Positions 3,011 to 58,335 of a DNA stretch of 64,000 nt are shown here, one piece after another. Within the stretch, counting starts at the first letter, position 1. The number at the start of each line of letters is the position of its first letter. A program made the position numbers and the translations under genes. This stretch comes from Blautia sp. (lineage in GTDB: Bacteria > Bacillota > Clostridia > Lachnospirales > Lachnospiraceae): positions 13,955 through 77,954 of the forward strand of contig JAMPFM010000007.1 of assembly GCA_023664455.1 (NCBI GenBank), in the 5' to 3' direction. Below the pieces are notes generated by a model. The model was not told the origin of the DNA. It ran no database searches and saw only the letters and a program-made list of their open reading frames with translations.

Positions 3011-3024
3011 GATTGGAAGATAGC

Positions 3025-3059
3025 CAGGCAGAAAGCAGAAGAAGCTTTCTGCCTGATTT
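3025..3059 (+). terminator. Intrinsic terminator
   Basis: Perfect 12-bp stem caggcagaaagc/gctttctgcctg, 7-nt loop, then atttt. Confidence 0.75.
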
Positions 3060-3136
3060 TCTTGTATAAAAATCAGAATATGGCAAAGACTAGAAGGAAA
3101 TGAAATCACATCTACATCGGAAAGGCGGACAACTTT

Positions 3137-14973: not shown

Positions 14974-14996
14974 AAATCTAGAAATTTCCTGTAAAT

Positions 14997-15204
14997 AGGT
15001 AATTGCGAAACTAAGATTTTACAGCCGCCCGTTGTGCAGAATATACAATCCAACGCAGGCACGCTCTCGCTACGGTTCAAACGCAGCGGTACATAAGATG
15101 CCAGAGTACGGCATCTAAGTACCGGCGTTTTCACAGTACCTGCTTATGGAGTTGTATATTCTGTACAACTACATGTTTCTAAACTTCAGTTTCGCAAATT
15201 GCCT
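14997..15204 (+). mobile_element. 208-bp MITE-like palindromic repeat, copy 1
   Basis: TIRs aggtaattgcgaaact / agtttcgcaaattgcct. The 195-bp core differs from the reverse complement of copy 3 at 10 positions. Degenerate 13-bp flanking repeats. No transposase in the window. Confidence 0.75.
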
Positions 15205-15238
15205 ATTTCCTAATAAAATATGAAAGGAAGATGGACGG

Positions 15239-28105: not shown

Positions 28106-28286
28106 CTTAGGTTATTGCAGACGTCCGTTGCGCAGAAGATATAATCCAACGCAGGTCCGCTCTCGCTACGGTTCAAACGCAGCGGTACATAAGATGCCAA
28201 AATACGGCATCTAAGTACCGGCGTTTTCACAGTACCTGCTTATGGATTGTATCTTCTGCACAACTACACATTTCTAAACGTAAATA
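28106..28286 (+). repeat. Copy 2 of the MITE-like repeat (outer TIRs eroded)
   Basis: 28115-28279 aligns to the copy 1/3 core, including the cggtacataagatgcc-N7-ggcatctaagtaccg hairpin; lacks the ttgcgaaact ends. Confidence 0.8.
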
Positions 28287-28313
28287 ATAGGAATAGAAAG
28301 GAAATATAAAGAC

Positions 28314-56489: not shown

Positions 56490-57500
56490 TTGACAGCCAT
56501 GTATCAGAGAATCATCACCCCAAGGGAAGCCGGGCAGCGGCTTGATAAATATCTTCATAAATTACTGCCAGGGGCCGGAAGCAGTTTTTTGTATAAGATG
56601 CTTCGCAAAAAGAACATCGTTTTAAATGATAAGAAAGCACAGGGCAGTGAAAAAATCGTTTCCGGCGACGTGATATCCGTCTATTTTTCGGAAGAGACCT
56701 TACAGAAATTCATGGGCGTACAGCAGACAAGTCCCCGGATTTCTGAAACAGCGGTTCCGGTTTTATACGAAAATGAACATATTCTGATTGCTGATAAACC
56801 TGCGGGGCTCCTGACCCAGAAGGCAGATATATCCGATGTTTCCTTAAATGAATGGCTTGTCCGGTATCTGCTTGCCACCCATCAGATAACAGAGGCAGAG
56901 TTACAGACCTACAGACCTTCCGCCTGTAACCGCTTAGACAGAAATACGAGCGGCATCGTTTTGTGCGGCAAAACCGTAGCCGGCGCGCAGATGCTTTCAG
57001 AGGTTTTAAAATCCCGCCGGCTTCACAAATTTTATATGCTCTATGCAAAAGGAAGTCTGTCCAAAGAGCAGACCATCGAGGGCTATTTGATAAAAGATAC
57101 ACAACACAATAAAGTACGGATTGATTCCAAGCCCCATGCCGCCCAAAGCGGCGGGCGCACACCAGTCAGGGAATCTTATATCCAGACAAGATATGTCCCC
57201 ATTCGTGAAGAAAGCGATAAAACCTTGTTGGAAGTGGAGCTGATTACCGGCAAATCCCATCAGATACGCGCCCATCTTGCCAGTATCGGGCATCCATTGC
57301 TGGGAGACTATAAATACGGTGATAAACGCTGGAATGATAGCTATAAAAGAGACTTTCAGATTTCCCACCAGCTTTTATGCGCCCATAAAGTCGTTTTTCC
57401 GTCGTTAGATACACCTTTTATGGAACTAAGTGAAAAGACGTTTTATGCGCCGCTGCCGGATATTTTTGATACCATTGCGGATGCATCCCCTTCCAGATAA
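56490..57500 (+). CDS. RluA-family pseudouridine synthase
   Basis: S4-like N-terminus QRLDKYL, DKPAGL, NRLDRNTSG (catalytic Asp), ITGKSHQIRAHL..IGHPL.GD.KYG. Confidence 0.93.
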   Translation: MTAMYQRIITPREAGQRLDKYLHKLLPGAGSSFLYKMLRKKNIVLNDKKAQGSEKIVSGDVISVYFSEETLQKFMGVQQTSPRISETAVPVLYENEHILIADKPAGLLTQKADISDVSLNEWLVRYLLATHQITEAELQTYRPSACNRLDRNTSGIVLCGKTVAGAQMLSEVLKSRRLHKFYMLYAKGSLSKEQTIEGYLIKDTQHNKVRIDSKPHAAQSGGRTPVRESYIQTRYVPIREESDKTLLEVELITGKSHQIRAHLASIGHPLLGDYKYGDKRWNDSYKRDFQISHQLLCAHKVVFPSLDTPFMELSEKTFYAPLPDIFDTIADASPSR

Positions 57501-57538
57501 AAGGAACTGACTATCAGATACAGGAAACTTTTGTTTTC

Positions 57539-57746
57539 CAGGCAATTGCGAAACTAAAGTATAGAAACGTGTAGTTGTACAGAATATACAATTCCAAAAG
57601 CAGGTACTGTGAAAACGCCGGTACTTAGATGCCGTATTCTGGCATCTTATGTACCGCTGCGTTTGAACCGTAGCGAGAGCGTGCCTGCGTTGGATTGTAT
57701 ATTCTGTACAACGGACGGCTGCAAAGTCTTAGTTTCGCAAACGACT
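57539..57746 (-). mobile_element. 208-bp MITE-like palindromic repeat, copy 3 (inverted)
   Basis: Perfect 12-bp TIR ttgcgaaactaa/ttagtttcgcaa at 57546-57557 and 57729-57740; flanked by the exact 13-bp direct repeat aacttttgttttc (57526-57538 and 57747-57759). Confidence 0.8.
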
Positions 57747-57798
57747 AACTTTTGTTTTCAAATTGAAAGGAAACCGGATACTAAAGGAAGCAAACATT

Positions 57799-58335
57799 AT
57801 GGCTACTTGGAATTCCAGAGGGTTACGAGGCTCTACGCTAGAAGACCTGATTAACCGCACAAACGAAAAATATGCAGAAAACGGACTGGCGCTGATTCAG
57901 AAAATCCCAACGCCGATTACGCCGATTACGATTGACAAACAGAGCCGGCACATTACGCTCGCCTATTTTGAGCAGAAGAGTACCGTAGACTATATCGGCG
58001 CAGTGCAGGGGATCCCCGTCTGTTTTGACGCCAAAGAATGCGCCACAGACACCTTTGCCCTGCAGAATATCCATGAACACCAGCTCCTTTTCATGGAACA
58101 ATTTGAGAAACAAAAGGGCGTCGCCTTTTTTCTCATCTACTATACGCACAAAGATATTTTCTATTACCTACCCTGCGAAATGCTCCGCTATTTCTGGGAC
58201 AGGGCAGCCGCGGGCGGCAGGAAAAGCTTTCGCTTTGAAGAATTGAATCCCGCCTATGTGCTTCCGAAAAAACACGGGATTCTTGTCCCTTATCTGGATA
58301 TGATACAAAAAGATTTGGACGACAGGATAGAATAA
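57799..58335 (+). CDS. recU: Holliday junction resolvase RecU
   Basis: RG..LE..IN.TN..Y, IQKIPTP, KSTVDYIG, FDAKE, IHEHQ. Confidence 0.93.
   Translation: MATWNSRGLRGSTLEDLINRTNEKYAENGLALIQKIPTPITPITIDKQSRHITLAYFEQKSTVDYIGAVQGIPVCFDAKECATDTFALQNIHEHQLLFMEQFEKQKGVAFFLIYYTHKDIFYYLPCEMLRYFWDRAAAGGRKSFRFEELNPAYVLPKKHGILVPYLDMIQKDLDDRIE

Follow-up and report, generated by a model that had tools for sequence, protein, structure and literature searches.

A 208-bp hairpin between rluA and recU

How did a 208-bp non-coding hairpin come to lie between two identical 13-bp sequences in the spacer that separates an RluA-type pseudouridine synthase gene from recU, and which enzyme would have placed it there? 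The stretch of DNA analysed (the window, 64 kb, C85:13955-77954) belongs to a Lachnospiraceae MAG of 3.40 Mb in 107 contigs, and the hairpin is referred to here as copy 3 of a MITE family. The features of the locus, in window coordinates, are:

56490..57500, + strand: RluA-type pseudouridine synthase gene, upstream (Pfam PseudoU_synth_2, E 1.5e-26)
57526..57538, no strand: left copy of the putative target-site duplication, AACTTTTGTTTTC, matching in kind the 8-13 bp repeats around other family copies
57539..57746, + strand: MITE copy 3, a long-stemmed, non-coding hairpin of 208 bp whose asymmetric core of ~90 nt is conserved
57539..57554, + strand: left terminal inverted repeat of copy 3, CAGGCAATTGCGAAAC, of the same type as the IS left end TAGGTAATTGCGAAAC
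57732..57746, - strand: right terminal inverted repeat of copy 3, read inward (T)AGTCGTTTGCGAAAC, of the same type as the IS right end TAGGCGTTTGCGAAAC
57747..57759, no strand: right copy of the putative target-site duplication, its first A possibly the element's terminal base
57765..57774, + strand: SD-like motif GAAAGGAAAC, starting 5 nt past the duplication
57799..58335, + strand: recU, Holliday-junction resolvase gene, downstream (Pfam RecU, E 5.4e-68)

A preliminary description of this DNA had reported a perfect 13-bp repeat exactly bracketing the element, and both copies of the 13-mer are indeed present, with no third occurrence in the window on either strand when up to one mismatch is allowed. 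Its length needs one qualification: since the full-length IS and most MITE copies terminate in ...CCTA, base 57747 (A) may be the element's own, and the duplication at copy 3 may measure 12 or 13 bp depending on the ownership of this base. Folded as single-stranded DNA, copy 3 forms one long hairpin (-55.1 kcal/mol, z = -9.1). An Rfam scan of the copy 3 region with E values up to 1 gave no match, and a promoter and terminator scan of the rluA-recU spacer found neither. This spacer is 298 nt long, of which the MITE and one duplication copy make up just 221 nt; the RluA C-terminus and the other ~77 nt of spacer differ from the sister species (window 57471-57799 compared with L092 1380-1520).

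Copies of the element across the genome

We found 42 BLAST matches of at least 150 nt to the element in the MAG, many of them fragments at contig ends. Across the 29 complete copies, the aligned ends read (T/C)AGGYAATTGCGAAAC ... GTTTCGCAAYTRCCT(A), the latter also given as GTTTCGCAATTACCT(A). The alignment consists of a near-invariant asymmetric core of ~90 nt, better conserved than the arms, which show compensatory changes, and of central hairpins that are interchangeable between copies; such indels and hairpin swaps are incompatible with a conserved ORF. The family thus has what is expected of a MITE: it is short (208 bp, where <~500 bp is usual) and non-coding, it carries terminal inverted repeats in all 29 copies, it is present in many copies with ends common to an autonomous IS, and, at the level of the family, it has flanking duplications (16/29 copies) that are single at the cleanest empty sites in the closest species genome, G047. 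Two further members lie in the window:

14996..15205, - strand: MITE copy 1, a full copy, 95% identical to copy 3, with a decayed flanking repeat
28108..28293, - strand: MITE copy 2, with core and inner stem kept and both terminal repeats gone

Several variants accompany the family. One subfamily has an extra hairpin insert of ~80 nt in the apical loop (C17:2528-2782, C65:2510-2759, C19:443985-444264 and C70:8345-8616), and the copies include two further apical hairpins that are interchangeable. A second family of MITEs, ~224 bp long, with CACGGAAATCAATTTTCAGTCAGC ends and 9-bp duplications (for example C107:21832-22055, C38:10957-11180 and C19:199494-199717), carries the same ~90-nt conserved core; we saw no IS in the assembly that could be its partner. 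There are also core-less mini-elements of 51-57 bp that comprise little beyond the two IS terminal repeats (L207 7312-7362, C3:~3020-3078 and C71:8219-8270). Within MITE copies at C19:152060-152190 and C19:69560-69450 the sequence passes into stretches of N, probably scaffold gaps caused by the repeat. A literature search returned no description of copy 3's MITE family or of its partner IS.

Flanking repeats and empty sites in the closest species

To ask how general the flanking repeat is, we compared the two 40-nt flanks of each of the 29 full copies and scored their best flush direct repeat, using left and right flanks taken from different copies as a control. Flush repeats of 8-13 bp were found in 16 of the 29 (10-13 bp in 15 of these), with a different sequence in each, which is what the preliminary description expected of duplicated target DNA; it had also proposed tabulating the repeat lengths for all copies. 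The mismatched-flank control never scored above 6.5, and real copies reached 13. No flanking repeat is recognisable in the other 13 full copies. They comprise most of the diverged copies (~80-85% identical to copy 3) and some young ones, among them copy 1 and C10_8121, each ~95% identical to copy 3.

We then reconstructed 15 empty sites by joining the flanks and retaining one repeat copy, and searched for them in G047, whose flanking genes are 88-99% identical. At 10 of the 15 orthologous sites G047 is without the element, with a contiguous alignment over the junction at 91-99% identity. Exactly one repeat copy is present at the six cleanest of these, for example ...GATAACATACAATACATAAAAGAAAGG... 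for the 12-bp CATACAATACAT site, and small indels lie near the junction at the remaining four. Four sites are occupied in both species, three of them (C57, C27 and C10) with half-alignments ~207 bp apart and an 11-13-nt overlap equal to the duplication. Because some orthologous sites are occupied in both species and others are empty, the comparison indicates that the family inserted both before and after the split from G047, and it identifies the flanking repeats as true target-site duplications. The transposition had been called recent, which is borne out for the family in the sense that insertion continued after the split from the sister species; the copies themselves diverge by 3-10%.

We also looked for the empty allele of copy 3's own site. 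In G047 rluA overlaps the start of recU, with no spacer, no 13-mer and no element, and the recU ribosome-binding site there is AAGGAAAC; at 80 recU loci of other species the spacers lack the element and are too short and divergent to align; and the reconstructed rluA-recU empty site, searched as an exact 33-mer, is absent from the genome and metagenome collections, where a gapped pattern of the same site gave one chance match in an unrelated gene and nothing relevant. The prediction of a single repeat at unoccupied sites therefore held for the six cleanest sites of the family in G047, and no such allele was found for the rluA-recU site.

This null result, the low complexity and T-richness of AACTTTTGTTTTC, and the remodelling of the spacer relative to the sister species could be taken to mean that the pair of 13-mers is a chance or pre-existing local repeat, or a part of the element, and was not made on insertion. 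We regard this as scarcely credible: none of 100 dinucleotide-preserving shuffles contained the 13-mer twice, the repeat is flush at both element ends as in 15 other copies with differing repeat sequences, the family's repeats are single at the element-free sites of the sister species, and the length is within, or one base above, the range of the full-length IS described below. Family behaviour, together with the position of the repeat flush against the family termini, supports the reading of the AACTTTTGTTTTC pair as the target-site duplication of copy 3.

A 1.76-kb IS with the same ends

A full-length IS sharing the ends of the MITE had been suggested as the thing to look for. We scanned the terminal repeat TAGGYAATTGCGAAAC against a genome collection holding one genome per species, and found loci in many Clostridia, mostly short hairpin elements of 51-330 bp, along with a recurrent different interior, often at contig ends, and two complete elements:

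L170 5968-7726: complete IS, 1759 bp, with the 10-bp duplication CTATTTCCTA
L185 67-1835: complete IS, 1769 bp

Each has one ORF of 485-490 aa. The left end of the IS is TAGGTAATTGCGAAAC and its right end, read inward, is TAGGCGTTTGCGAAAC; copy 3 retains this left/right asymmetry, with CAGGCAATTGCGAAAC (AATTGCG type) on the left and TAGTCGTTTGCGAAAC (CGTTTGCG type) on the right. Just ~16 bp of terminal repeat is common to MITE and IS, so the MITE is not a simple deletion derivative of the IS. Copies of 1757-1758 bp in the complete sequences CP065314.1 and CP015399.2 (Enterocloster clostridioformis, YL32) have perfect duplications of 9, 11, 11, 12 and 12 bp at five distinct sites.

In the MAG itself, 7 left and 11-12 right IS ends lie within ~50 nt of contig termini and the interior is missing, as commonly happens to multi-copy IS in short-read bins. 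Exact flush 9-12-mers are common to six pairs of left and right ends, where the chance expectation for 9-mer matches among the 84 possible end pairings is ~3e-4:

C82/C88 contig pair: common duplication AGATAATATAGG
C66/C100 contig pair: common duplication TAAATAGAGATA
C75/C50 contig pair: common duplication GACAAATCTTA
C86/C15 contig pair: common duplication CAATCAATCAG
C32/C29 contig pair: common duplication GTATCACACT
C88/C30 contig pair: common duplication AAAATATAT

At two of these sites, on C66 and C86, the IS copy lies directly beside a MITE. Within the MAG assembly, a search for paired terminal repeats found no full-length IS, tblastn found no transposase gene, and the Pfam models DDE_Tnp_1 and DDE_Tnp_1_6 found nothing over threshold; the absence of DDE_Tnp matches is due to the unassembled IS interior and to the weak match of the enzyme to those models. 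The ~50-nt IS ends at contig termini suggest that an active IS copy is present in this strain. Searches of plasmid and phage collections gave no informative match, and the exact left-end interior of the IS variant in the MAG had no match in other genomes. Within the genus, 22 of 122 genomes have an assembled transposase gene and 25 of 61 sampled genomes contain the terminal repeat, which is also present in many other genera. Taken together, the common ends indicate that the partner of copy 3's family is this 1.76-kb IS, of which the same genome holds several copies; the search for such an element was thus successful, and its 9-12-bp duplications resemble those of the MITE.

The transposase and its classification

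When comparing the transposase with curated models, we found that the Pfam N-terminal domain DUF772 scores well above its cut-off (47.2 against 23.1 bits), that DDE_Tnp_1_6 (18.8 against 25.1 bits) and DDE_Tnp_1 (16.1-16.4 bits against 23) fall below theirs, and that the best NCBIfam match is the IS1182 model NF033551, at 74.8 and 62.3 bits (E 6.5e-21 and 3.8e-17), far below its 270-bit cut-off. There are more than 3,800 homologues, and those of Enterocloster clostridioformis carry the NCBI name 'ISNCY family transposase'. PDB sequence searches with the transposase and with its profile gave no match.

An alignment of sequences that are 66-90% identical has as invariant residues D147 (FDSSG), D288 (GDAAFD) and Y420-x2-R-x3-E427-x6-K434; the last corresponds, on inspection of the motif, to the Y(2)R(3)E(6)K signature YKIRVNVEKSINHFK at residues 420-434. 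D147, D288 and E427 are the putative catalytic residues, with spacers of 140 residues (D147-D288) and 138 residues (D288-E427). DDE-type transposition, as first proposed for copy 3, agrees with this assignment, in that an IS with the same ends encodes a DDE transposase with predicted catalytic residues. The same alignment has a block with eight invariant cysteines at residues ~333-391 (C333, C334, C362, C380, C382, C386, C391 and others), between the second aspartate and the YREK glutamate, which may form a zinc-binding insertion domain.

The length of the duplication had prompted the guess that an IS4- or IS1182-family enzyme was responsible, and a bona fide IS4-family partner, of the IS4 or IS231 subgroup, has some features to recommend it. 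The hallmarks of IS4 are Y(2)R(3)E(6)K, a D(60-110)D(100-150)E spacing and duplications that span about one helical turn (De Palmenaer et al. 2008, PMC2266710). In Table 1 of that study the direct repeats measure 10-13 bp in subgroup IS4 and 10-12 bp in IS231, which the 10-13-bp duplications here would fit; the YREK signature is present, and the second spacer of ~140 residues is within the IS4 range. Against such a partner, the predicted first spacer of 140 residues is outside 60-110, the DDE_Tnp_1 score of 16 bits is below the cut-off of 23 with no match over threshold in the MAG, none of 30 DDE_Tnp_1 loci from the genus has the terminal repeat, and the ends, TAGGYAATTG, misfit the terminal signatures of subgroup IS4 (-AATR...WTW) and IS231 (CAT...) given in PMC2266710. 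With IS1182 as the best curated match and ISNCY as the label of close homologues, we consider a true IS4-family partner unlikely.

Strict membership was rejected for both families, for IS4 on DDE_Tnp_1 score and terminal sequence, and for IS1182 on NF033551 score (74.8 against 270 bits). The guess was nevertheless close, given the best match to IS1182 and the YREK motif, and its strict form did not hold for either family. By these profile and motif comparisons, the transposase is best described as a likely unclassified member of the IS4/IS5/IS1182 DDE group, closest to IS1182.

Insertion beside SD-like motifs

Apart from one property, copy 3 is an ordinary MITE: insertions of the IS and of the MITE alike fall immediately upstream of ribosome-binding sites. 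At all 21 reconstructed MAG sites (15 MITE, 6 IS), an SD-like pentamer lies within 10 nt of the duplication, compared with 6-7% of random positions, a figure that includes positions outside ORFs. In each of the six MAG copies of the IS, the motif lies on the right-end side at a distance of exactly 6 nt from the duplication, with a start codon after it. Among independent IS copies in other genomes (L267-L276 and L279-L285), the motif is on the right-end side in 14/16 and on the left-end side in 0/16.

The distance from IS end to motif equals the duplication length plus 6 nt: a 6-nt spacer separates the duplication from AAGGA, and the right end is located 15-19 nt upstream of a host gene's ribosome-binding site of the GAAAGGAG type. 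Called genes begin 28-32 nt from the IS end, and transcription of the transposase gene is directed away from the host gene next to the right end. Inspection of the flanks of the five MITE copies with a right-end-type terminus, copy 3 included, found that this terminus faces the motif in every case, as the right ends of full IS copies do. The target can be summarised as an A/T-rich stretch ending ~6 nt upstream of the SD-like GAAAGGAG.

We lean towards the reading that the IS and its MITEs choose their targets by reading the SD-like GAAAGGAG, such that the cut in one strand would lie at a fixed distance of ~6 nt upstream, with the IS right end always facing the motif, and the cut in the other strand would vary over 9-13 nt. 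The element would thereby land in the 5' leader, immediately upstream of the ribosome-binding site. It is presumably the transposase itself that reads the motif. One cut fixed relative to the motif and the other variable would account for the variable duplication length. We found no IS that targets ribosome-binding sites described in the searchable literature. If this reading is true, the MITE would serve to carry a structured, conserved hairpin into 5' UTRs, and the IS would systematically separate genes from their promoters or replace the promoters.

Proposed mechanism and implications

Copy 3 is very probably a non-autonomous MITE bearing the 16-bp terminal inverted repeats of the 1.76-kb IS, with AACTTTTGTTTTC duplicated on its insertion. 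The IS transposase (DDE, with a DUF772 N-terminal domain, distantly IS1182-like and with an IS4-type YREK motif) would bind the two MITE ends in trans, cut the target strands 9-13 bp apart and join the element to the staggered ends, with the right end of the IS, or here the CGTTTGCG-type right end of the MITE, facing the SD-like motif. Gap repair would then copy the 12-13 bp of AACTTTTGTTTTC onto both sides.

A different route, in which an RNA or single-stranded hairpin intermediate recognised through the core moves without a DDE enzyme and the duplications arise by target-primed synthesis, would explain why the ~90-nt core is more conserved than the arms and recurs in the second MITE family with other ends and 9-bp duplications, and it would be compatible with the compensatory changes in the arms and the variable duplication length. 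It sits poorly with termini that are the exact terminal repeats of a DDE IS, with the same duplication length, target bias and orientation rule in that IS, and with the existence of core-less 51-57 bp mini-elements with the same ends; no link to a reverse transcriptase was seen. We judge movement of this kind to be highly improbable.

Mobilisation by the IS transposase would settle the question of how these hairpin repeats, widespread in gut Clostridia, move, and would name as the responsible enzyme a very common but unclassified ('ISNCY') transposase. The IS also explains many contig breaks in the MAG, where six contig pairs are joinable across the unassembled IS. Insertion between promoter and ribosome-binding site positions the IS and MITE to alter the expression of many genes. 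The target preference offers a testable case of motif-anchored target choice with variable stagger, and it is this preference for insertion beside ribosome-binding sites in a fixed orientation that we consider the part worth following up.

Comparison with known systems

In Bacillus cereus, MIC231 is reportedly mobilised in trans by the IS231A transposase. Like MITEs of the MIC231/IS231A type, the present family is short, non-coding and multi-copy, it shares identical terminal repeats with a full-length IS of the same genome, and its duplication length matches that of the IS; unlike them, it has only ~16 bp in common with the IS, and its interior is an unrelated long hairpin with a core that is also found in a second MITE family. 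The Correia/NEMIS, ERIC and RUP repeats are intergenic hairpins of 100-250 bp, likely co-transcribed with their neighbours, with duplications of TA or otherwise short. Copy 3 resembles them as an intergenic element folding into one long stem-loop, and differs in hosts, ends and duplication lengths.

The IS4 family, in its IS4 and IS231 subgroups (PMC2266710), has in common with the partner IS a single-ORF DDE transposase, Y(2)R(3)E(6)K and variable duplications of about one helical turn, and some members of these subgroups show marked target-arm specificity (PMC2266710). The partner IS departs from this family in its DDE_Tnp_1 score below threshold, its predicted first D-D spacer of 140 residues, its other terminal sequence and its DUF772 N-terminal domain. 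The IS1182 family (NF033551) is nearer in being the best curated profile match, in having a DUF772 N-terminal domain and in its size of ~1.76 kb with a single ORF; the differences are the score (74.8 against 270 bits), the ISNCY name of close homologues and the target, which is an SD-like motif, not a palindrome, whereas IS1272 of the IS1182 family has been reported to target palindromes (PMC5678879). In target choice there is a likeness to IS1202-family elements, whose insertion relative to dif/pdif sites is fixed in both distance and orientation (PMC10132070). As there, the element here has one orientation and a constant, short spacing with respect to a short conserved host motif; the transposase is of another family, and the motif is an SD-like GAAAGGAG in place of the XerC/D site.
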